Shown here in pieces: positions 1,924-48,557 of a DNA stretch of 53,394 nucleotides. Numbering within the stretch: position 1 is the stretch's first letter; each line of letters begins with the position of its first letter. The notes beneath the pieces are model-generated. The model was not told the origin of the DNA and made no database searches. It saw nothing but the letters and a program-made list of their open reading frames with translations. Position numbers and translations under genes: made by a program. This stretch comes from Betaproteobacteria bacterium (GTDB lineage Bacteria; Pseudomonadota; Gammaproteobacteria; Burkholderiales; SG8-39): the NCBI GenBank assembly GCA_029863065.1, contig JAOTWE010000001.1, positions 1 to 53,394 of the forward strand. Reading direction: 5' to 3'.

Positions 1924-1979
1924 CGGCCCGTCCGCTCGGGGCAGGAGCACGATCTTGCCCTGCACCTGGCGCGTCTCGA
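1924..1979 (-). repeat. relic copy A of the 3' end of the quinone-oxidoreductase gene (authentic end at 14571)
   Basis: 1929-1979 matches 14564-14614 at 47/51 positions by hand alignment, including 35 identical nt (1939-1973 = 14574-14608). Read on the minus strand it gives [14 protein letters not shown], with the stop codon replaced by CGA. Confidence 0.7.
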
Positions 1980-1981
1980 CC

Positions 1982-2436
1982 GAGCCACAGACCTTTACCG
2001 AGCTGAACCGCTATGTCTACATCCGGGCTCGCCAACGATGCCTCGGGGGAGGCCGTTGTTCACCCAGCCCGAGGGTGAAGCACTCCTGCGTGATCTGCTC
2101 GCCAACTGGGGACGCTTCCTGAAGGACGAACAATTGCTCGATCCTTTGATCCGCATGGCCGCGGCGCATTGCCAGTTCGAGGCGATTCACCCCTTCACCG
2201 ACGGCAACGGCCGTGCTGGCCGTGTCCTGAATTGCCTGTTCTCCGTCGAATCGGGGTTGCTCACGCTGCCGATCCTCAATCTCAGCCGCTACATCATCAA
2301 CAACGAGTCTGACTACTACCGCTTGCTCTTGGCGGTCACGCGAGAGGGCGCCTGAAAAGCGTGGCTGCTTTACATCCTGCGCGGCGTTGAAGAGACGGCG
2401 ACGTGGACCACCGCCAAAATCGTCACCCAGGGATTC
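1982..2436 (+). pseudogene. Fic/DOC family protein, N-terminally truncated and disrupted
   Basis: The Fic motif [12 protein letters not shown] is present (ORF 2038-2355). An in-frame TGA at 2353-2355 sits where family members have Trp (REGA*KAWLLYILRGVEETA). Upstream family-like residues [12 protein letters not shown] are in a different frame, implying a frameshift near the G-run 2045-2049. The first ~100+ aa are missing. Confidence 0.7.
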
Positions 2437-2780
2437 CTGTTGCGGGCCGGCGCGCACGGGCCTTTCGCCCGGATCAAAGCGGGCCGGGCTCCCACGGACC
2501 CCAGATGGCGCAGGTCATCCCGGTCCCGAGGGCGTCTGTGCCCTGCATGTTGAGGCGGCTTTGTGACGGCAGGACGCAAAGATATTCATATCCAACGGCG
2601 AACAATAGATGAGCGATTCCAATAAATGCCGGACACTCTCTGTGTTAATACTGCCGGGTCCGCCACGAAGAGGTGGCATGCCAGGACTGGTTGGACTCGG
2701 TATGTTCATGCCGTCGCGGCTGCCATTGCGAATCTGAACTGCACGACCGCAGGGTCCTGTTCAAGAGGAGGAATGCCCTC

Positions 2781-4001
2781 ATGCCTTATCAAATCAGCGA
2801 AATCAACCCGGCCAAGACGGCGACCGGAATGACCTTGACCTGGGCGACACGACTGGCGGCCGCAGCGGCGGCCCTGGTTCTGGCCGTCGGACCCGCCGTC
2901 GCAAAAGACGACAACATCCTGAGACTCGACCACTACGTGCGCCACGTCTCGACCGTGCCGGTCAACGCCGGGCAGGTGGTCGATCTCTTCATGCGCGAGC
3001 GGGTGGCGGCGGGGCTCAACCATACGCTCCGCAGCACGGAGGCGACCGGAAAGGTCGTGCTCTTCATCCACGGTGGCACCGTGCCGAGTGTGCCGGACTA
3101 TGACCTGGACTATAAAGACTACAACTGGATGGCCTACCTGGCCAAGGCCGGCTTCGATACGTTTAGCTTGGACCACACGGGCTACGGGCGGTCGCCCAGG
3201 CTGACGATGGACGATCCGTGCAACATGAACCCGGCGGATCAGCCGCTCCTCATCCCGAACCCGCTGAGCGCGCCGTGCCCGCACTCGTATCCCTTCACGC
3301 TCACGACTAGCCAGTCCGACTGGGACGAGATCCACACGGCGGTCGAGTACATCAAGCGCATTCGCAACGTCGAGAAGGTCCACCTCGTCGGCTGGTCGGC
3401 GGGCGGCCCGCGCGCAGGCGGCTACGCCGGCCTTCACCCCGAAAACGTGGACCGCGTCCTGCTCTACGCGCCGAGCCCCCCCGGAAACGTCCCGAGCACG
3501 CCGCCCGCGGTCGTTCCGCGGCCCGGCTTCCCGATGAACACACAGACTCGCGAGGAGCTGGAGACGGGCCGCTGGGCCTCCGAGATCAACTGCGTGGACC
3601 AGCGCGACCCGGGCATCCTCGAGCCGCTCTGGAATACGATCATGGACTACGACGACCTGGGGAGCGTGTGGGGCACGCCGCCTGGCCTCATGCGTACCCG
3701 CACGGCCGTGTCGTGGGGCTGGAATCCCTCGCTGGCCTCGCAGATCACGGCTCCGCTGCTCCTCATCACCGGTGACGGTGACAGCACGCCTCCGTCCGTG
3801 CGGCGGGCGACCTACGACCTCGCGAACTCGGCCAGCAAGGTGTTCATCGAGGTGCAGTGCGCCTCACACTTCATGGTTTGGGAGTACCAGCACATGGTGC
3901 TCTTCGAGGGCTCGAAGCACTGGTTCCTGAACGGGTCGATCAAGGGGGTCAGCAACGGCGAGATCATCGTCGACCCCACCGGGAAGTACCACAAGCAGTA
4001 G
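2781..4001 (+). CDS. exported alpha/beta-fold hydrolase
   Basis: The ATG at 2781 is preceded by GAGGAGG (2765-2771). The signal-like N-terminus is MTLTWATRLAAAAAALVLAVGPAVA. The nucleophile elbow GWSAG is present and the overall length is typical of an alpha/beta hydrolase. Confidence 0.75.
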   Translation: MPYQISEINPAKTATGMTLTWATRLAAAAAALVLAVGPAVAKDDNILRLDHYVRHVSTVPVNAGQVVDLFMRERVAAGLNHTLRSTEATGKVVLFIHGGTVPSVPDYDLDYKDYNWMAYLAKAGFDTFSLDHTGYGRSPRLTMDDPCNMNPADQPLLIPNPLSAPCPHSYPFTLTTSQSDWDEIHTAVEYIKRIRNVEKVHLVGWSAGGPRAGGYAGLHPENVDRVLLYAPSPPGNVPSTPPAVVPRPGFPMNTQTREELETGRWASEINCVDQRDPGILEPLWNTIMDYDDLGSVWGTPPGLMRTRTAVSWGWNPSLASQITAPLLLITGDGDSTPPSVRRATYDLANSASKVFIEVQCASHFMVWEYQHMVLFEGSKHWFLNGSIKGVSNGEIIVDPTGKYHKQ

Positions 4002-4094
4002 CCCACTGGCCTGCCGGAGTCGCGGCGTGCCGCGCCGCGTCCCCGGCGTCCCGCACGTCGCCGTCCTGATTCCAGATCTCTCCGGCACAGGGTG

Positions 4095-4215
4095 TGGCTG
4101 GGAAGGTTTACCACAGCGCTGCGCGGCTTCTGGCGCGCGACCGGGCCTGATTCTGTTCGAGCAGACCTTCGGGGACCTGGCGAACTTCAACCCGTACGTG
4201 CATGTGCTCGCCGCC
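4095..4215 (+). mobile_element. short relic of an IS91/ISCR-type (rolling-circle, HUH) transposase gene
   Basis: The translation GLILFEQTFGDLANFNPYVHVLAAD resembles the conserved IQTFG....NPH.H.LV.DG block of IS91-family transposases as I remember it. There is no intact ORF, and the first His of the HUH-like PH.H is Tyr. Confidence 0.3.
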
Positions 4216-4285
4216 GATATCAGACGTTCGATTCCGGCGGTTCTCGACCAACGTCACAAAAGAGCCACGATGGGCGGGTAACCCG

Positions 4286-4314
4286 TTGATCTCGTAGGCT
4301 CGCTGCGAGATCAA
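4286..4314. repeat. strong hairpin (inverted repeat) next to the IS91-like relic
   Basis: TTGATCTCG (4286-4294) pairs perfectly with CGAGATCAA (4306-4314). The stem extends through a T-G wobble and two more pairs to about 12 bp with loop GCTCG (4298-4302). Confidence 0.6.
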
Positions 4315-4337
4315 AAGTCGCCTAGCCGCGCGCCCGA

Positions 4338-4391
4338 CGGCCCGTCCGCTCGGGGCAAGGCCACGATCATGCCCTGCACCCTGCACCTGGC
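4338..4391 (-). repeat. relic copy B of the quinone-oxidoreductase gene 3' end
   Basis: Aligns to copy A (1924-1970) at 43/47 positions and carries a 7-nt internal duplication (ctgcacc ctgcacc). It shares the 20-nt block cggcccgtccgctcggggca with copy A. Confidence 0.65.
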
Positions 4392-4418
4392 TAGCCTGGG
4401 AGGCAAAGCAGGGTTCGG

Positions 4419-5477
4419 TTACCTCAGCTCCAGCTCTGCCGTAACGACCGGCCCACTGATCCAGTGGGCCTTTTCAATATTGCCCTGGTATTGATCTGCC
4501 ACGTCATAGAACCTCAGCGTGATGGCAGCCTTGCGCATCTTGCCCTCTATCTTGGCAGGCAAGGCGTAGCTCATGGCGCGGGCCTCGAGGCTTTTTAGTG
4601 TGGTGTCCTCTATAACCACGGCCGATGGCATGGAGCCCAGCATCTCGGGGTACAACTCAAATTTTCTGTAGAACGTATCCACGACCTTGTGGAGTTCCTT
4701 GCCCTGATCGTCAGTGACGGATATCTCGAGAACAAGCACCCGCGAAGGACCTCCACTCGGCATGCCGTGGCCCTTGATCCGGTTCTCGACGACCATGCTT
4801 ATGTTTGGAAACGTAAGGTTGATATCCCTTAGGACAAGATCGTCTTCGTATATCCCGGGGTTGTGCATGATGGAATCAAAGCCGTGGTAGGCGATTCCGT
4901 CGACGGGCGCCATGTGGCACCCCTGGCACGTCAATCCCTCTTCGGCCGCTTTGCTTTCTAGCCACTGGCTGTAGGGCGACATCAGCGGCGGGAACAGCTC
5001 GTGGCACTTGGCACAGAAATCCTTCTCCTTCATTGCACTCAGGTCGGGCCGGTACGTCGTTTCATGCAGCTGCGTTATGGATAGTCCCGGTGCCGCCGGG
5101 CCGTGGCATATCTCGCAGTTAATCCCCTCCGCGCCACCCTTGATCCCGTGACAGGCATAGCAGGACTCCTCTCCCATCATCATGCCGAGGAAAAGATTGC
5201 CCTCTACGTAGTCCCTCGTACGCAGGAAGCTCTCGTTCGTCGTCGCGACAGCATGACGCGAGTGGCCAAGCCATTCCTTGTAAATCTTGCTGTGGCAGGT
5301 TCCGCAAACGGCGGCCCCGCGATGCTCGCCGAGCTCATACTTTGGCGTTTTCGTAGACATCATGCCTATGTACATATCACTGTTGATAAAGACAACGGCG
5401 AGGACCAGAAGAACAGCGACAAAAGCAGCCGGGACCAACCACCACTTGGAAACCGCACCCTTTTCGCCAAACGCCAT
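4419..5477 (-). CDS. membrane-anchored pentahaem c-type cytochrome (352 aa)
   Basis: Five CXXCH motifs: CGTCH, CYACH, CEICH, CAKCH, CQGCH. One N-terminal TM helix (WWLVPAAFVAVLLVLAVVFI). The ATG at 5477 has GAGG upstream. A C-terminal domain of about 160 aa has no haem motif. Confidence 0.85.
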   Translation of the reverse strand: MAFGEKGAVSKWWLVPAAFVAVLLVLAVVFINSDMYIGMMSTKTPKYELGEHRGAAVCGTCHSKIYKEWLGHSRHAVATTNESFLRTRDYVEGNLFLGMMMGEESCYACHGIKGGAEGINCEICHGPAAPGLSITQLHETTYRPDLSAMKEKDFCAKCHELFPPLMSPYSQWLESKAAEEGLTCQGCHMAPVDGIAYHGFDSIMHNPGIYEDDLVLRDINLTFPNISMVVENRIKGHGMPSGGPSRVLVLEISVTDDQGKELHKVVDTFYRKFELYPEMLGSMPSAVVIEDTTLKSLEARAMSYALPAKIEGKMRKAAITLRFYDVADQYQGNIEKAHWISGPVVTAELELR

Positions 5478-5546
5478 GACGCTACCTCGTCTTACCCTTG
5501 TAGCGTGGTCTGTGCCCACCCATCCATGTGCCGGCGACGGGTAGTG

Positions 5547-5843
5547 CTACATGCGCAACTGGGCGCCGATCTTGCGTATGAAGCTGGCCATCATCAACAG
5601 CATGATGCCCAGGAGAACGGATGCCGCGGCCACCAGCCAGACGAGGATCCCCGGCTCGATGACGATCAACACGCCGAGGACAATCAATAAGATGCCTGGC
5701 AGCATCGTCAGGACGCTTGGAAACCGTTTTTGTGTCATGCCCGCGCACATCTTCGCCATCGGACACATGGCCATCGCGCCTTCGGGTCGCCGGGTCCCGG
5801 CGGCCATCGACTCTGCGCTCTGCCTTACGCTGTCTTGGGTCAT
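5547..5843 (-). CDS. small membrane protein with Cys/Met-rich N-terminus (98 aa)
   Basis: The ATG at 5843 is preceded by GGAGG (complement of 5850-5854). MAMCPMAKMCAGM is followed by two hydrophobic helices (LPGILLIVLGVLIVIEPGILVWLVAAASVLLGIMLLMMA). Confidence 0.65.
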   Translation of the reverse strand: MTQDSVRQSAESMAAGTRRPEGAMAMCPMAKMCAGMTQKRFPSVLTMLPGILLIVLGVLIVIEPGILVWLVAAASVLLGIMLLMMASFIRKIGAQLRM

Positions 5844-5893
5844 GGTTAACCTCCTGCTGGCATGAATCGAGAAGGTTGAGTATTCGGCGCTGC

Positions 5894-6118
5894 TCAGCCC
5901 GGGTTCATCTGCTGGATCACCTTTTCTATGGGGCAGAGGTCAGCAAGAGTGACATACGCTCCCATCAAGGGGAAAAATGCCGCAATCACGAAGACCCAGA
6001 TCGCCAATATCCGTCCGAACTTCTGTATCGACCCGTCGGTCTTCGTGGAGGAGAAGAGAATGAAGTAACCAAGCGTTACCCAGATCGTGGCAGGCAGAAG
6101 ACTGAAAAAGAAACACAT
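5894..6118 (-). CDS. small integral membrane protein (74 aa)
   Basis: The ATG at 6118 has GGAGG 7 nt upstream. It has 2-3 hydrophobic helices, a Cys at residue 2 and a C-terminal DLCPIEK. No family recognised. Confidence 0.6.
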   Translation of the reverse strand: MCFFFSLLPATIWVTLGYFILFSSTKTDGSIQKFGRILAIWVFVIAAFFPLMGAYVTLADLCPIEKVIQQMNPG

Positions 6119-6240
6119 GGCATCACCTCCGGCGTCGTTTGGGCCCTTCTGGTGACTTCCTCAAGCATTCGCGTTCGAGAACGGATACTGCTAGCACAAT
6201 TCAATTCCGCGCTTGTTGACGTGGGTCAGACGAAATGCGA

Positions 6241-7116
6241 TTAAGAAAGGGGAATTTGACAGCGCGCTGGCGGGCACAAGCTGCTATCCGGGGCGTCGGC
6301 AGCCTTCGTTGCGCGAATGAAGGCGCTCAAGAACTTGCCATCCACCTGCGGACCGATCACGGTCGCATCCATGCCATTGTCCGCAAGGAAAGCTCTTGCA
6401 TCTTCTGCCCGGTAAATGCGCGTGGGCTCGATTTCCACGTTCTGGAACCCGGCAGCGGCGAGCTTCGCACGGTATTGATTCTCTTCCAGCGCGCCCGCCA
6501 CGCACCCCACCCAGAGCAGGATGCTCTCGCGTATCTCGGGCGGAATGTCGCCCCGCGTGACCACGTCCGATACGGCGAATCGGCCGCCCGGTTTCAGAAC
6601 CCGGAACGCTTCGCGCAGTACGCGGTCCTTGTCCGCCGAGAGGTTGATCACGCAGTTGGAGATGATCACGTCTACCGAGTCATCCGGCAGCGGGATGTGT
6701 TCGATCTCGCCTTTCAGGAATTCCACGTTCTGCACGCCGGCCTTGCGCTTGTTCTGATTGGCGAGCGCCAGCATCTCGTCGGTCATGTCGAGCCCGTAAG
6801 CCTTTCCGGACGGTGCCACGCGCTTCGCAGAAAGGAGAACGTCTATGCCACCGCCCGATCCAAGATCGAGTACGACCTCCCCCGGCTTCAATTGCGCCAG
6901 TGCCGTAGGGTTCCCGCAGCCAAGCGAAGCCAGCACCGCGGTATCGGGTAACTGGTCCGTCTGCCTCGCCTCATACAGGTTGCTGGTAATCGGATCGCCG
7001 CGCTGACCATCGGCCGGCGCTCTGCTGCAGCAGGAGCCCTTGGCGCCGCTCGTAACGTTTAAGGCGGCGCGCGCATACCTTTCCTTGACGACGTTCTTGA
7101 TATCGGTCTTTTCCAT
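6241..7116 (-). CDS. arsM: arsenite S-adenosylmethionine methyltransferase
   Basis: SAM motif [11 protein letters not shown]. The conserved ArsM cysteine contexts are present: [36 protein letters not shown] is also present. AGGAG overlaps the arsR stop. Confidence 0.9.
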
Positions 7117-7124
7117 GGCATCTC

Positions 7125-7469
7125 CTAGGCGCCGGCGTTGACAATCTTCTTGGGGCTGATCGCCTTACTGCGCGTGCAGCACTCGGAATAAAGGAATGCG
7201 AGCAACTGCTGCAACGCATTGACGTTCGCTGTGTACCTGAGGTACGTGCCCTCCCGCTGGACTTGTACCAGGTCTTCGTTCTTCAACTTGTCCAGGTGGT
7301 GCGAAAGGTTCGATCCGGACACATCCAGTTCGGCCTGGATCTCGCCGACCACCATGCCCTCGGGATGGGCCGCGAGCAGCAGCTGCATGATCCGGAGCCG
7401 CGATTCGGCGCCGATGGCGGCAAACATATCCGCGTATTGAATGATCTGTTCCGGACTGGCTGCTTTCAA
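7125..7469 (-). CDS. arsR: ArsR/SmtB family metalloregulator
   Basis: Winged-helix core ESRLRIMQLLL...VGEIQAELDVSGSNLSHHLDKLKNEDLV. C-terminal vicinal cysteines (YSECC). I prefer the TTG start at 7469, 9 nt after AGGAGG (7479-7484). The track's TTG at 7526 coincides with the -35 hexamer. Confidence 0.85.
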   Translation of the reverse strand: MKAASPEQIIQYADMFAAIGAESRLRIMQLLLAAHPEGMVVGEIQAELDVSGSNLSHHLDKLKNEDLVQVQREGTYLRYTANVNALQQLLAFLYSECCTRSKAISPKKIVNAGA

Positions 7470-7498
7470 GGCCAGCAACCTCCTATTTCGAGAGTTCA

Positions 7499-7526
7499 AT
7501 GATAATGAAAATAGCGAAGTTGTCAA
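7499..7526 (-). promoter_or_regulatory. sigma70-type promoter of the arsR operon with overlapping imperfect palindrome (candidate ArsR operator)
   Basis: On the minus strand the sequence reads TTGACA (7526-7521), 16 nt, TATCAT (7504-7499). The imperfect palindrome TTCAATGATAATGAA (plus 7495-7509, 5 of 7 arm pairs) overlaps the -10. Confidence 0.5.
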
Positions 7527-7625
7527 GACCCGGCTGAGGTGCGACGTGTAGAGCGCCGTGGTCAGCGGCTTCAGCTTCCCGCCGCCGGATCGTCGTGAAG
7601 CCTTTTCGCCGATAGCAGCTCGCCC

Positions 7626-8816
7626 TCAATACGAGCGTGGCATGCCGAGAATGTGCTCGCCGATGTATCCGAGCACGAGGTTGGTCGAGATCGGGGCGAT
7701 CTGCATCAGGCGCGTCTCGCGCCACTTGCGCTCGACGTCGTACTCGCGCGCGTAGCCGAACCCGCCATGGGTCTGCATGCAGGCCTCGGCGGCATGCCAG
7801 GCGGCTTCGGACGCCAGCATCTTGCCCATGTTTGCGTCATCGCCGCAGGGCAGGCCTGCCTGGAACAGGGCGGCAGCCTTCCTCAGCAGGATGTCGGCCG
7901 CCTCGATCTCGGCATGGGCGTGCGCGATGGGAAACTGGATGCCCTGGTTCTGGCCGATGGGCCGGCCGAATACCACGCGGTCCTTGGCATACGCGACCGC
8001 GGTCCTGGTAAACCAGCGTCCGTCGCCGATGGCTTCGGCCGCCACCAGGATGCGTTCTGCGTTCATGCCATCAAGAATGTATTTGAAGCCTTTGCCTTCC
8101 TCGCCGATCAGGTTTTCGGCCGGCACCCGTGCGCCGTCGAAGAACACTTCGGTTGTATTGTGGTTGATCATGGCCTTGATCGGCTTGATCTCCAGGCCTT
8201 TGCCGAGGCAGGCGCGGATGTCGAGCAGGAACACCGACAGGCCTTCGGTCTTCTTCTTCACCTGCTCTGCAGGCGTGGTGCGCGCGAGCAGCAGCATCAG
8301 GTCCGAATGCAGCGCGCGCGATGTCCACACCTTCTGGCCATGAATCAGATAGTGATCCCCCTGGCGGACCGCACGCGTTTTCAGTTGCGTGGTGTCCGTG
8401 CCGGTGGTCGGCTCGGTCACGGCGAATGCCTGCAATCTCAGCGCCCCGCTGGCAATCTTCGGCAGATATTGCGCCTTCTGCTCGGGGCTGCCATGGCGTA
8501 ACACGGTGCCCATGATGTACATCTGCGCGTGGCAGGCGCCTGCATTGCAGCCGGCGGCGTGTATCTCTTCCAAAATGGCCGCCGCAGCGCGCAGTGGCAG
8601 CCCCGCCCCGCCGTACTCCTCCGGAATCAGCGCGGCCAGATACCCCGCCTCGGTAAGCGCTTTGACGAACTCGGTCGGATACGCCGAGCGCTCCTCGAGC
8701 TCGCGCCAATAGGCGCCGGGAAAGCTTGCGCAGATCCGGCGCACGCTGGCGCGGATCTCCGGGAAATCCTCGCCCAACGCTACGCCGATGTCCTCAATTC
8801 TTGTCGTGGCAGCCAT
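7626..8816 (-). CDS. acyl-CoA dehydrogenase
   Basis: 396 aa and full-length ACAD-like: GYLAALIPEEYGG, TEPTTGTDT, QIAPISTNLVLGYIGEHILGMPRSY. Confidence 0.9.
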   Translation of the reverse strand: MAATTRIEDIGVALGEDFPEIRASVRRICASFPGAYWRELEERSAYPTEFVKALTEAGYLAALIPEEYGGAGLPLRAAAAILEEIHAAGCNAGACHAQMYIMGTVLRHGSPEQKAQYLPKIASGALRLQAFAVTEPTTGTDTTQLKTRAVRQGDHYLIHGQKVWTSRALHSDLMLLLARTTPAEQVKKKTEGLSVFLLDIRACLGKGLEIKPIKAMINHNTTEVFFDGARVPAENLIGEEGKGFKYILDGMNAERILVAAEAIGDGRWFTRTAVAYAKDRVVFGRPIGQNQGIQFPIAHAHAEIEAADILLRKAAALFQAGLPCGDDANMGKMLASEAAWHAAEACMQTHGGFGYAREYDVERKWRETRLMQIAPISTNLVLGYIGEHILGMPRSY

Positions 8817-28502: not shown

Positions 28503-28676
28503 GGGCATACCTGAGAAGCCGGCTTCCGGCCGCAAGCGGACTTTCAATCGACCGCCCTATGAGGCGGCTGATCGGATCGCTGTGCGCGTGGCGCCAACTT
28601 GACCCTTATCAATTCGACTGACAATGCGCGGAAGATACTCGTCGGCGATGTGCCCACTCTATCAAAGACAAATACC

Positions 28677-29309
28677 ATGACAACCTTTTCGGAGGACATC
28701 TACAGCGAGCCTTCGAACATCGACGTCGATACGCTGAGGAATCTTGGACCGCTGAGCGGCTTGGCGGGAATCTGGAAGGGAACACGCGGCCTGGATGTGA
28801 AGCCCAAGGCCGAGGGTCCAAAAAAGCAGGCGTATGTGGAGCGATTCGAGCTTCAGCCGATCGACCCGCAAACCAACGGCCCGCAACTATTCTATGGACT
28901 GCGCTATCACCAGCACGTGGTGAAGCCGGACCAGGTCAAGACTTATCACGATCAGGTCGGGTATTGGCTATGGGAGCCCGGCACAGGCACCGTCATCCAG
29001 ACGCTTACGATTCCGCGCGCCCAGGTTGCTATGGCCGTTGGCAAGGCTACGCCCGATGCAAAGTCATTTGAGCTCGTCGCGAGCCGCGGTCCGGAGACCT
29101 ACGGGATCTGCTCGACCCCATTTCTGGAATACGCATTCAAGACGGTGGAATACCGCATCAAGGTAAGCATCAACGCCGACGGCACTTGGTCCTACGACGA
29201 GGACACCGTTCTCATGATCAGGGGCAAGAGCGACCCCTTCCACCATACGGATCGCAATGTGTTGACCAAGATCGGTGAGCCTACGCCGAACCCCTTGGCG
29301 CGAAAATAG
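28677..29309 (+). CDS. haem-binding beta-barrel (nitrobindin/THAP4-like, DUF1794-type) protein
   Basis: The ATG at 28677 starts the ORF. LGPLSGLAGIWKGTRG ... YHDQVGYWLWEP fits the lipocalin-like nitrobindin pattern as I remember it. The gene appears to have lower GC than its neighbours (by eye, not counted). Confidence 0.6.
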   Translation: MTTFSEDIYSEPSNIDVDTLRNLGPLSGLAGIWKGTRGLDVKPKAEGPKKQAYVERFELQPIDPQTNGPQLFYGLRYHQHVVKPDQVKTYHDQVGYWLWEPGTGTVIQTLTIPRAQVAMAVGKATPDAKSFELVASRGPETYGICSTPFLEYAFKTVEYRIKVSINADGTWSYDEDTVLMIRGKSDPFHHTDRNVLTKIGEPTPNPLARK

Positions 29310-29421: not shown

Positions 29422-30471
29422 CTAGTGGGTTGCCACAAACATGCAGTTCTGCGGTCGCGGCGTGTCCAGAACGCTGACATTTCCAAAACCCGCTTCGCCA
29501 AGCATTCGCCGTGCGGTTTGTTCGCCCCAGACCGTGCCGAGGCCTTGACCGCCCACCGCAAGGGACACCGGCATGCAATGCATCAGGCTGATGCCGTAGT
29601 ACATCGGCGCAAAGGGGTTGGCGACGTTCTCTTCTATGCGGCTGCTGAATTTGAACTCGATCATCAGGAAGGTGCCGCCGGGGGCCAACGCCCGCTGCGC
29701 GCTCCGCAATACGGAGTCGGGCGCCTTCTGATCGTGAATGGCGTCAAATGCAGTGATGAGTTGGAATGTCGGATCGCCCGGCAGATCTGTCACGTCGACC
29801 ACCTCGAACGTGGCGTTCGTGAGCCCCATCTCCTTCGCTTCGGCGCGCGCCCGGGCGATCGCGTCCTCGGCAATGTCGTAGCCAAGAAAGGTCGATTTCG
29901 GGTATTCGCGAGCAAGAACATTCATCGCATGCCCCGTGCCGCAGCCGATATCCAGGACGCGGATTCCCTGGCGCAACCGGTCGGTGAGCCCGTCGACGAC
30001 GCCGATGAAGCCGGAAACGAGCAGCTGGTCGAAAATCCGGCGCCACATATCGTCCATGCACTGCGTGAAAACCGGCCGATATGCCGAATAGGGAATTCCG
30101 CCACCTTGACGAAAGCACGCCGTCAACTTCGGCAGGTGGGTGCCGAAATGATTGATCATGCGGCTCATCGGCGAGAGGTTCTGCGCTGAATTGCCCGTGA
30201 GTAGCGCCGCATGCTCCTGCGGCAAGCTGTAGCGCTTTGACGCAGGGTCATACGAATAGATCCCGCTGGTCGCCATCGCGCCGAGCCACTCGCGGACGTA
30301 TCGCTCCTTCAATCCCAGGCGATCCGCCAGCTCGTCGGTCGTGGCCGGCCCTGCCCTTGAACCTTCGAAGAGCCCTACCTGAAAGCCGATCTCGATCAGC
30401 TTTGTCAGTACGGCCCCAGTGTAGATATTGAGGAGTTTCCCGCCGAACTGCTTTACCACGTCAGGATTCAT
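29422..30471 (-). CDS. class I SAM-dependent methyltransferase with N-terminal winged-helix domain
   Basis: The ATG at 30471 starts the ORF. SAM motif VLDIGCGTGHAM. The N-terminal ELADRLGLKERYVREWLGAMATSG resembles the Rv2258c-type wHTH. Confidence 0.85.
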   Translation of the reverse strand: MNPDVVKQFGGKLLNIYTGAVLTKLIEIGFQVGLFEGSRAGPATTDELADRLGLKERYVREWLGAMATSGIYSYDPASKRYSLPQEHAALLTGNSAQNLSPMSRMINHFGTHLPKLTACFRQGGGIPYSAYRPVFTQCMDDMWRRIFDQLLVSGFIGVVDGLTDRLRQGIRVLDIGCGTGHAMNVLAREYPKSTFLGYDIAEDAIARARAEAKEMGLTNATFEVVDVTDLPGDPTFQLITAFDAIHDQKAPDSVLRSAQRALAPGGTFLMIEFKFSSRIEENVANPFAPMYYGISLMHCMPVSLAVGGQGLGTVWGEQTARRMLGEAGFGNVSVLDTPRPQNCMFVATH

Positions 30472-30623
30472 GGTCCCCCCATTGTCGCCAGGAAACAGTA
30501 CCACCCACCATGCGCACCTGCTTAAGGTACGCACTCATGATCAACACCATGGCAATTCTAGTAGGACGTGCTTACCCCATGCGAATGTCCGCTTCGGGAC
30601 GAAAGCAGTGGTACGCCGGCAGT

Positions 30624-44717: not shown

Positions 44718-44803
44718 CCGAGCGGCCCAGCATGCGCGCCCGGGAGGGGGGTGGTTTGAGGCTGATCAAGGAAAGTGCGCGGCTCGGCGAGCCCAGCGCG
44801 CCT

Positions 44804-48276: not shown

Positions 48277-48557
48277 ACCTGCCTCCAAATCGAGCGATGA
48301 CGGAAAGCAAACGCCGCCGCAGCGGGACACGAATGCGGAAATGACGCCGCGTGCGGCCTCGCTTGCTGCTTCGCAGGGAGGTACAGGCCTGTACCGAAAG
48401 GGCGGGCCCCGCGTGCCCGAAGCCGAACTTGCAGGCCGGTTTTTGAGAGCCGGCCCGTTGCATCATTTCTCGAGCCTCGCCTAAGGCGAGCAAGGTCGCT
48501 CAAAATCCACCTACACCTTTCCGGTCAACGCGTATTGATCGTGGTCAAACCTTCGGA

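Follow-up and report, generated by a model that had tools for sequence, protein, structure and literature searches.

Arsenic methylation is regarded as a purely cytoplasmic process for which ArsM and a thiol reductant suffice, and we know of no c-type cytochrome in ars systems. The question of whether a redox step outside the cytoplasm can accompany this process is raised by a locus on a 53,394-bp contig from a metagenome-assembled genome (MAG) of a Betaproteobacteria bacterium, the whole of which is called here the window. On its minus strand, a repressor gene (arsR) and an As(III) methyltransferase gene (arsM) are followed by genes encoding two mini membrane proteins (orf74 and orf98) and a membrane-tethered pentahaem cytochrome c. 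The analysis points to a composite locus, in which an arsRM pair and a mobile redox cassette would have entered a facultative, selected partnership. We hold this reading with moderate confidence.

A five-gene block probably assembled from two units

The block and its regulatory DNA comprise the following features.

7499..7526, minus strand: sigma-70-type promoter-like element TTGACA-16-TATCAT, 5' of arsR (11/12 consensus matches)
7125..7469, minus strand: arsR, ArsR/SmtB repressor, 114 aa (HTH_5 2.5e-10; NF033788 66.2 bits vs a cutoff of 55)
6241..7116, minus strand: arsM, As(III) S-adenosylmethionine methyltransferase, 291 aa (NF008823 366.5 bits vs a cutoff of 263)
6119..6252, minus strand: native orf74-upstream block, ~120 nt, ~80% identical to the orf74-upstream region of locus L156, which has no arsM
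5894..6118, minus strand: orf74, 74 aa, two-transmembrane hairpin (invariants include C2, P9, W41 and L-C62-P)
5547..5843, minus strand: orf98, 98 aa, two transmembrane helices (M-C27-P-M-A-x-x-C33-x-G motif and conserved E-P turn)
4419..5477, minus strand: membrane-tethered pentahaem c-type cytochrome, 352 aa (five CXXCH motifs; AlphaFold model; profile search)

From arsR to the cytochrome gene, the five open reading frames (ORFs) run in one direction with intergenic gaps of 8, 122, 50 and 69 nt. All of them are preceded by a Shine-Dalgarno motif, which for arsR is AGGAGG, 9 nt before the TTG start codon. Genes, strand, coordinates, Shine-Dalgarno sites and gaps stand in the sequence and the ORF listing as the initial annotation had them, and so does the promoter that it placed ahead of arsR. 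A TTCA-N7-TGAA inverted repeat at 7495-7509, overlapping the -10 hexamer, is a candidate ArsR operator. The composition of the block sets it apart from its host: the G+C content is 58.6% in arsR, 61.4% in arsM, 51.1% in orf74, 60.6% in orf98 and 56.2% in the cytochrome gene versus 66.9% in the window, and the G+C content at third codon positions (GC3) is 0.71-0.75 versus 0.85-0.95 in most host genes. The low-GC island described initially is borne out by these values, except that the adjacent acyl-CoA dehydrogenase gene has ~60-66% G+C and not ~70%.

The DNA that separates arsM from orf74 was found to belong to the cassette. The block at 6119-6252, which includes GGAATTGAATTGTGC and the palindrome CGTTC-TC-GAACG, resembles the DNA upstream of orf74 in L156 (L numbers designate the loci used for comparison), and this homology begins at CCCCTT, inside the last four arsM codons, which marks the junction. 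In addition, ArsM carries a C-terminal tail of ~20 aa (6244-6297) which has no counterpart in the aligned ArsM homologues; translation seems to run on here into DNA of the junction or of the cassette. Since the gap consists of orf74-upstream sequence starting in the arsM stop region, and since ArsM has this extra tail, the locus is best read as a recombination joint at the 3' end of arsM, with native cassette DNA in the gap.

How the cassette is transcribed at its new position can be approached from the same DNA. A terminator scan of the minus strand predicted no terminator-like site in any gap of the five-gene block, including the 122-nt gap between arsM and orf74, in line with the single module seen by the initial annotation. 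Folding of this gap (z = +1.1) revealed no unusual RNA structure. As the gap lacks a terminator, read-through from the ars promoter into the cassette is plausible. The 122-nt gap also lacks an FNR box, and no sigma-70 consensus promoter was found in it or in the homologous L156 block. An unrecognized internal promoter or operator in this conserved block is as possible as read-through.

The cassette in other genomes

The orf74 and orf98 genes were examined in about six distinct contexts. In L001, orf74, orf98 and a cytochrome gene (product 71% identical) occur together without arsM, and the 532 nt upstream contain a tRNA-like repeat and a leader. In L150-154, orf74 directly precedes the cytochrome gene (~75%), orf98 is missing and no arsM is found within 6 kb. 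Conversely, orf74 and orf98 are present with neither cytochrome nor arsM in L146-149, from a complete Burkholderiales MAG chromosome, and in L156. Two further loci without arsM show an orf74-cytochrome-p62 arrangement (L080, cytochrome 40% identical) and a cytochrome gene followed by what is left of a truncated orf74 (L004). The order arsR-arsM-orf74-orf98-cytochrome was encountered neither in the other orf74/orf98 loci (L001, L080, L146-156) nor in 48 non-redundant cytochrome loci. Because orf74, orf98 and the cytochrome gene combine variably elsewhere, and do so without arsM, they are best described as a separate, variable and self-standing module, and the five-gene arrangement of the window looks recent.

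In these genomes, the cassette usually has regulatory DNA of its own. An FNR/CRP-type box (TTGAT-N4-ATCAA with at most one mismatch) is located at exactly -137 from the orf74 ATG in nine loci (L001, L146-L153) belonging to three contexts, and is followed by a conserved leader of ~130 nt; in L080, a perfect FNR box lies at -95 (5001-5014). Upstream of family cytochromes without orf74, an FNR-like box was found in 2/56 cases, one of them within an orf98 coding sequence. Judged by its sequence, the box implies low-oxygen induction of the cassette. A riboswitch in the orf74 leader was also considered and is not supported, RNAalifold giving a covariation term of ~0 for the conserved type-A leader. 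As a separate observation, the window contains five FNR-like boxes with one mismatch each, against 0.39 expected by chance (21-34, 5656-5669, 28599-28612, 44756-44769 and 48535-48548). The box at 28599-28612 stands at the start of an ORF for a THAP4/nitrobindin-like haem-binding protein (28599-29309), which adjoins a low-GC3 gene for an Rv2258c-like helix-turn-helix methyltransferase (29422-30534).

The cassette is also mobile. In L001 and L150, direct repeats taken from the 3' end of tRNA-Lys (43-53 nt, ..GGTCGGCGGTTCGAATCCGCCACGGCCTnCCA) lie on either side of it, at L150:3900-7492 and at L001:333-385, 2322-2374 and ~4283, and such repeats are found in L151-L154 and L066 as well. An intact tRNA-Lys(UUU) gene opens the L150 array, whose repeats delimit successively GFA, CBS and orf74 with the cytochrome gene; the array contains no integrase and has the appearance of successive tRNA-att islets. 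These cassettes are reminiscent of genomic islets formed by tandem accretion at tRNA 3' ends, from which they differ by their tiny size (0.8-2 kb) and by the absence of an integrase. The window copy departs further from this model, as no tRNA-Lys-type repeat was found in the window. Searches by tblastn with orf74, orf98 and the cytochrome against 72,556 plasmids returned no match.

ArsM beside the cytochrome family

The linkage running from arsM through orf74 and orf98 to the cytochrome, which the initial annotation had put forward as a possible system, is confined to the window. What recurs is the association of ArsM with the cytochrome family. After loci had been collapsed at 95% identity and the window excluded, ArsM was found within ~2.5 kb of the cytochrome in 4/48 family loci versus 0/87 unrelated multihaem-cytochrome loci taken from the same scans as controls (Fisher p ~0.015). 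These loci (L002, L023, L027/L096 and L072) fall into at least three clades of a neighbour-joining tree and into two domains of life, and have sisters without arsM. No description of an association between ArsM and a multihaem cytochrome was found in the searchable literature. The association is real, sporadic and undescribed.

The tightest arrangements are those of L002 and L072. In L002, which has archaeal neighbours (L40e, TYW2), genes for a Cys-rich PadR, ArsM, a DGC protein, a 68-aa transmembrane protein and the cytochrome overlap or abut. Similarly, in the bacterial locus L072, a SigZ-type sigma factor gene is followed by arsM, DGC, a gene for a protein with a twin-arginine translocation signal and the cytochrome gene, which forms the same tight arsM-DGC-x-cytochrome operon as in L002. 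Both ArsM proteins pass the NF008823 model, with 335 bits (L002) and 360 bits (L072). In Hydrothermarchaeaceae (L023), arsM and a gene for a SHOCT-type transmembrane protein lie 1.7 kb downstream of the cytochrome gene. In Gemmatimonadota (L027, L096), the neighbours are an AhpD-like protein, an ArsM-like protein, SigZ and a 62-aa Cys/His transmembrane protein. In these two ArsM-like proteins (L027:3093-3923 and L096:5127-5957), LGSGK replaces LGCGN, so that one of the four cysteines is lost and the two As(III)-binding ones are kept; they may constitute a functionally distinct methyltransferase subgroup. The 'arsM' matches of L019 and L006 proved to be generic methyltransferases with ~30% identity and were rejected and left uncounted.

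Other genes are repeatedly found near the cytochrome. In eight loci, these encode SigZ-type extracytoplasmic function sigma factors whose tails are Cys-rich. AhpD-like proteins (L004, L011, L088, L027, L096) and DGC proteins recur as well, and so do mini transmembrane proteins with many Cys, His or Met residues, which are not homologous to one another. NCBIfam contains ArsM-AhpD fusion selenoproteins, consistent with a functional neighbourhood of ArsM, AhpD and the cytochrome.

Several individual neighbours are worth recording. Archaeal members of the family stand beside extremely Met-rich proteins or small Met/Gly/Cys/His transmembrane proteins (L013:3726-4100, L026:6695-6931, L023:3231-3542, L002:5798-6004); several of these have a C-terminal SHOCT domain, and Orf74 and Orf98 have no homologue among them. 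In L157, whose cytochrome is 58% identical to that of the window, two genes with multicopper-oxidase domains and an unassigned gene of 241 aa lie downstream on the same strand (L157:2433-4005). In L080, two genes (L080:4019-4865) diverge from the orf74-cytochrome-p62 unit, one for a SigZ-type sigma factor whose C-terminal tail is Cys-rich, the other for a metallothionein-like 65-aa protein with four CC pairs.

A tethered pentahaem cytochrome related to c552 and MccSep

The initial annotation had given the cytochrome one transmembrane anchor, five CXXCH motifs and a haem-free C-terminal domain, all of which are recovered in an alignment of 43 homologues and in a structural model. The five motifs (at C58, C106, C121, C155 and C184) are invariant in this alignment, together with H75, H138, H198 and H237, the last being part of an equally invariant G-H-x-x-P-x-G-G-P-S-R loop. 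No non-haem cysteine is invariant across the 43 sequences. The AlphaFold2 model (pLDDT 81.5) consists of an N-terminal helix (residues 11-31), a helical five-haem cap and a haem-free, immunoglobulin (Ig)-like beta-sandwich (~214-350). A word-indexed search delineated a family of 111 clusters at 90% identity, and an exhaustive profile search of 1.84 billion representatives returned 34 relatives at E<=1e-30 and 949 at E<=1e-10. All family members originate from metagenomes or MAGs.

The N-terminal helix followed by a compact periplasmic multihaem domain is reminiscent of the NapC/NirT/CymA/NrfH proteins, from which the window cytochrome differs by its five haems and Ig-like domain. An assignment as NapC/CymA-type quinol dehydrogenase was rejected: the scores stay below the cutoffs for PF03264 (14 vs 24.1 bits) and TIGR03153 (19.2 vs 134.2 bits), and in 27/97 relatives a lipobox (e.g., VTSC or LSGC) replaces the transmembrane helix. 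Because of this substitution, the N-terminus is regarded as a mere tether and not a quinol-binding anchor.

The best match in both structure and sequence, and the only strong fold match in the PDB, is the low-potential pentahaem cytochrome c552 of Thermochromatium tepidum (PDB 5ZE8; Foldseek E 3.4e-12, TM-scores 0.60/0.55 over 404 aligned columns; family profile E 2.2e-15). Both proteins combine a five-haem helical cap with an Ig-like C-terminal domain and share a G-H-x-x-P-x-G-x-P loop and the haem-5 motif C-Q-x-C-H-M, although their sequences are just ~18% identical. Cytochrome c552 is reportedly longer (435 aa) and soluble. By contrast, members of the present family are tethered, by a transmembrane helix or a lipid.

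The other relative, MccSep/ExtKL of Geobacter sulfurreducens (GSU2937-2936; PDB 9WT8/9WT9), was retrieved by the profile with an E-value of 2e-8 and has the same architecture, i.e., a pentahaem cap with five CXXCH motifs on an Ig-like stem. MccSep is a multihaem selenoenzyme which reduces polysulfide (and selenite), and its catalysis requires C239, the distal ligand of haem 2, and the selenocysteine (Sec) Sec325, located in a D-G-U-P loop derived from the Ig domain (bioRxiv 10.1101/2025.11.18.688581). The position of this loop is conserved, with G-H-S-I-P-D-G-U-P in MccSep and G-H-G-M-P-S-G-G-P in the window, and its catalytic residues are not. At the position of Sec325, where Sec or Cys is found in MccSep-type proteins, the window family has glycine (P-[AS]-G-G-P-S-R, with G243 at least 90% conserved). 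At the position of C239, at or beside which c552 also has a cysteine, between its haem-4 and haem-5 motifs, the window family has a variable M/F/L/S/T. The window cytochrome scores 41.3 bits with NF040886 versus a cutoff of 250; it is membrane-tethered, and its neighbourhood differs from that of MccSep, with no extHIJ genes. The fold being common but the catalytic Cys and Sec absent and NF040886 below its cutoff, an identity with MccSep was rejected.

A wider look at the fold gives a similar picture. Next-tier relatives are ~380-400 aa long, and the inspected ones (among P0366-P0480) carry P-T-G-[M/L/V]-P-[T/S]-R at the position of the Sec loop; they too lack the haem-ligating Cys of MccSep and c552. 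As the inspected relatives have no such Cys, the two characterized proteins would be exceptions within a large, uncharacterized pentahaem superfamily. Since the Cys and Sec chemistry of c552 and MccSep is missing, the window cytochrome is probably an electron-transfer protein or a reductase with an active site of another kind. By analogy, its homology to both proteins leans toward reduction over oxidation.

The arsR-arsM pair

As proposed in the initial annotation, the first two genes are an arsR and an arsM, each passing its NCBIfam model. They form a canonical pair, for which methylation activity can be predicted from sequence. ArsM residues 2-273 align to positions 3-269 of NF008823 and include a class I S-adenosylmethionine-dependent methyltransferase domain (Methyltransf_31, E 8.7e-37). 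The four cysteine contexts read initially (GSCCS, LGCGNP, SNCVINL and VGCVAG) are kept, and in alignment C29/C30, C66, C154 and C204 match the same motifs in the ArsM proteins of L002, L023 and L072. Neither the surroundings nor the sampled window genes included a further ars gene (arsC, acr3/arsB, arsP or arsH).

ArsR has two cysteines in total, the vicinal pair of its SECC motif (residues 96-97) that had already been reported. As(III)-sensing ArsR proteins have three-Cys sites, formed in AfArsR by Cys95, Cys96 and Cys102, and SpArsR from Shewanella putrefaciens, which lacks the third cysteine, responds only to MAs(III) (PMC11868830). With only two cysteines, the window ArsR cannot form a three-coordinate site, which rules out a three-Cys As(III) site as in R773 (type 1), AfArsR (type 2) or CgArsR (type 3). 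Its pair lies in the C-terminal helix where Cys95 and Cys96 of AfArsR would be expected, by position and not by alignment. As described for SpArsR, this vicinal pair would correspond to AfArsR Cys95/Cys96 without Cys102. From this putative resemblance, MAs(III), or trivalent organoarsenicals more broadly, would be the predicted ligand of the window ArsR. An operon for comparison is ArarsRMC from Arsenicibacter rosenii (PMC11868830), where, as in the window, an ArsR/SmtB repressor gene is directly upstream of an arsM encoding the four cysteine contexts. In contrast to known arsRM operons, the window ArsM has a tail that seems to derive from the junction, and the pair is continued on its strand by three genes that are not ars genes.

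The mini-proteins Orf74 and Orf98

Orf74 and Orf98 belong to abundant families, with more than 314 clusters at 90% identity for Orf74, whose members are 65-97% identical to the window copy, and more than 105 clusters for Orf98. The Cys2 and C-terminal L-C-P of Orf74 pointed out in the initial annotation are conserved across the family. For Orf98, the motif and the two transmembrane helices that follow it are confirmed, but not the location of the motif at the N-terminus, which is variable: the Cys/Met motif occupies residues 24-36. Based on the positive-inside rule, both Orf74 cysteines are predicted to face the periplasm and the Orf98 motif the cytoplasm. Neither protein belongs to a Pfam or NCBIfam family, either alone or when 46 and 39 family members, respectively, were scanned individually; the weak matches obtained for relatives (DUF308, DUF373, DUF7315) are typical of hydrophobic hairpins. 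The view that the three genes downstream of arsM are uncharacterized and their combination, as far as the literature could be searched, undescribed is upheld.

As for their function, MerE, MerF, MerT and the 'PC' motif proteins of the CcdA/DsbD type presumably offer a lead. These proteins likewise have 70-100 aa, two transmembrane helices and invariant Cys-Pro motifs by the membrane faces. In contrast, no sequence or profile similarity to them could be detected, the Cys patterns are different, and there are no mer, cop or dsb genes nearby. Comparison of Orf98 and Orf74 by hhalign with other cytochrome-linked mini-proteins (the 68-aa protein of L002, the SHOCT transmembrane protein of L023 and p62) revealed no relationship.

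Flanks of the island

The left side of the block is delimited by one further feature.

4338..4380, no strand: 43-nt direct repeat marking the left boundary (91% identity to a copy at 1924-1966)

The two 43-nt repeats flank a mosaic segment (1924-4380) with a Fic-domain fragment and an alpha/beta-hydrolase gene; the segment is probably an earlier insertion adjoining the ars/cytochrome island. The truncated Fic-domain ORF (2038-2355) carries HPFxxGNGR, and the alpha/beta-hydrolase (2673-4001) is a secreted one. Of the two relics that had been placed at this edge, the duplicated one corresponds to the repeat, while the IS91-like one is not supported, as the ORF concerned (4027-4281) has no Pfam match and no tblastn match in the 72,556 plasmids. 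A search of positions 4000-8000 against Rfam gave no match at E<=1.

A proposed function and its alternatives

Under the composite reading, two units would share a foreign island of ~3.1 kb with low GC3. The two-Cys ArsR would repress the strong sigma-70-type promoter and be released by trivalent arsenicals, probably MAs(III), and ArsM would use As(III) and MAs(III) as substrates for cytoplasmic methylation. The cassette, made up of orf74 and, as optional members, orf98 and the cytochrome gene, would be a self-contained redox unit of the membrane and periplasm that spreads horizontally and elsewhere stands alone behind its own conserved leader, mostly with an FNR/CRP-type box. Through recombination, it would have come to lie next to the 3' end of arsM, bringing along ~120 nt of the sequence that normally precedes it, and read-through from the ars promoter probably contributes to its transcription. 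The cytochrome would be exported and anchored on the outer side of the membrane, its five c-type haems held in a c552/MccSep-type cap over the Ig-like stem, and would most likely act as a low-potential electron-transfer protein or as a reductase for soft-metalloid or chalcogen species in the periplasm, with Orf74 and Orf98 as putative thiol-bearing membrane partners. The result would be a periplasmic redox step accompanying cytoplasmic metalloid methylation, accessory and facultative rather than part of a fixed five-gene system. That the juxtaposition was selected is suggested by the repeated recruitment of ArsM, AhpD-like, DGC and SigZ proteins and mini membrane proteins beside the cytochrome family, which makes a functional partnership likelier than pure chance. 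A more specific version, which we consider very unlikely, would make the tethered pentahaem subfamily a periplasmic reductase of oxidized or thiolated metalloids (arsenate, MAs(V), thioarsenates, selenite, tellurite) that feeds ArsM with Orf74 and Orf98 as partners; the glycine replacing the Sec of MccSep beside haem 2 might then open a substrate pocket.

Several points weigh against a selected partnership. Every other orf74 locus examined is without arsM, including those whose cytochromes are 71-75% identical, and the arrangement may be recent and unselected. About 90% of the family members are without ArsM in their surroundings and many are solitary, the enrichment is modest (p ~0.015) with 3-4 independent events, and the mini-proteins beside different members are not mutually homologous. 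As C239 and U325 of MccSep are absent and there is no conserved non-haem Cys, no substrate can be derived. The conserved gap might hold an independent promoter or operator invisible to a sigma-70 scan, and an assembly chimera at the junction is possible in a MAG contig. One rival explanation is a chance juxtaposition, in which an anaerobically induced electron-transfer or sulfur-type module unrelated to arsenic landed by arsRM in a recombination-prone mosaic. The flank with its 43-nt repeats and Fic-domain fragment, the foreign GC3, the mobility of the cassette between tRNA-fragment repeats and its FNR-type boxes all fit this view; moreover, the sole characterized relatives are linked to sulfur (the polysulfide reductase MccSep and c552 from a purple sulfur bacterium), and TusA and DsrE genes lie near the orf98 copy in L155. 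We nonetheless regard pure chance as rather unlikely, since it leaves unexplained the presence of ArsM in family loci and in none of the controls, across at least three clades and two domains and in part with overlapping genes, and since AhpD-like partners connect the ArsM and cytochrome contexts.

At the other extreme, the five genes could form one dedicated, ArsR-gated arsenic operon, serving the anaerobic oxidation of MAs(III)/DMAs(III) outside the cytoplasm or the reduction of As(V)/MAs(V) for ArsM. Its operon-like features (one strand, a Shine-Dalgarno motif per gene, a single strong promoter, terminator-free gaps and low GC3 throughout) speak in its favour, as do the adjacency of ArsM and the cytochrome in other clades, including operons with overlapping genes, and a two-Cys ArsR suggestive of organoarsenical sensing. 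Nevertheless, it appears doubtful: the four-gene linkage exists only in the window and arsM is missing at every other examined orf74 locus, the cassette brought its own upstream DNA with a joint inside the arsM stop region, and elsewhere it is under an FNR-type box and not ArsR. Furthermore, the relatives of its fold are low-potential proteins or reductases, which, as far as their potential can be extrapolated, would be ill-suited to the oxidation of arsenicals. A module for thiols or soft metals (Cu, Hg, Ag) has also been considered, in which Orf74 and Orf98 would be MerE/MerF-like carriers or a thiol-disulfide relay, the cytochrome would give or take electrons, and arsenic would be one trigger among several. 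It would account for the invariant C-P motifs of both mini-proteins, with cysteines predicted on opposite membrane faces, for the small Met/Cys/His-rich proteins beside other members (the Met-rich 124-aa protein of L013, L002, L023, L026 and the p62 group), and for the multicopper-oxidase genes downstream of the L157 cytochrome and the four-CC-pair protein of L080. Given that no homology to the Mer, Cop or Dsb families was detected, that the mini-proteins are not homologous across loci and that the resemblance to MerE/MerF and CcdA is a putative one, we judge this explanation highly improbable.

Significance

The composite reading, in which arsRM and a mobile redox cassette became facultative partners, bears on more than this contig. 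ArsM is repeatedly found beside one family of tethered pentahaem cytochromes in Betaproteobacteria, Gemmatimonadota, another bacterial lineage and Hydrothermarchaeota, a recurrence that points to an extracytoplasmic redox step associated with metalloid methylation in uncultured anaerobes or microaerophiles. In addition, three uncharacterized families are defined, namely Orf74 and Orf98, both abundant and well conserved, and a c552/MccSep-like clade without the catalytic Cys and Sec, whose genes travel as a small cassette between tRNA-fragment repeats. If the cytochrome reduces or oxidizes arsenic, selenium or tellurium species, it would represent a new class of enzyme in metalloid cycling; in the version judged very unlikely above, where it reduces metalloids for ArsM, it would open a route independent of Arr and ArsC and might be the missing MAs(V) reductase. 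Should the cytochrome act on none of these species, the locus still exemplifies how mosaic islands yield operon-like, seemingly functional arrangements.

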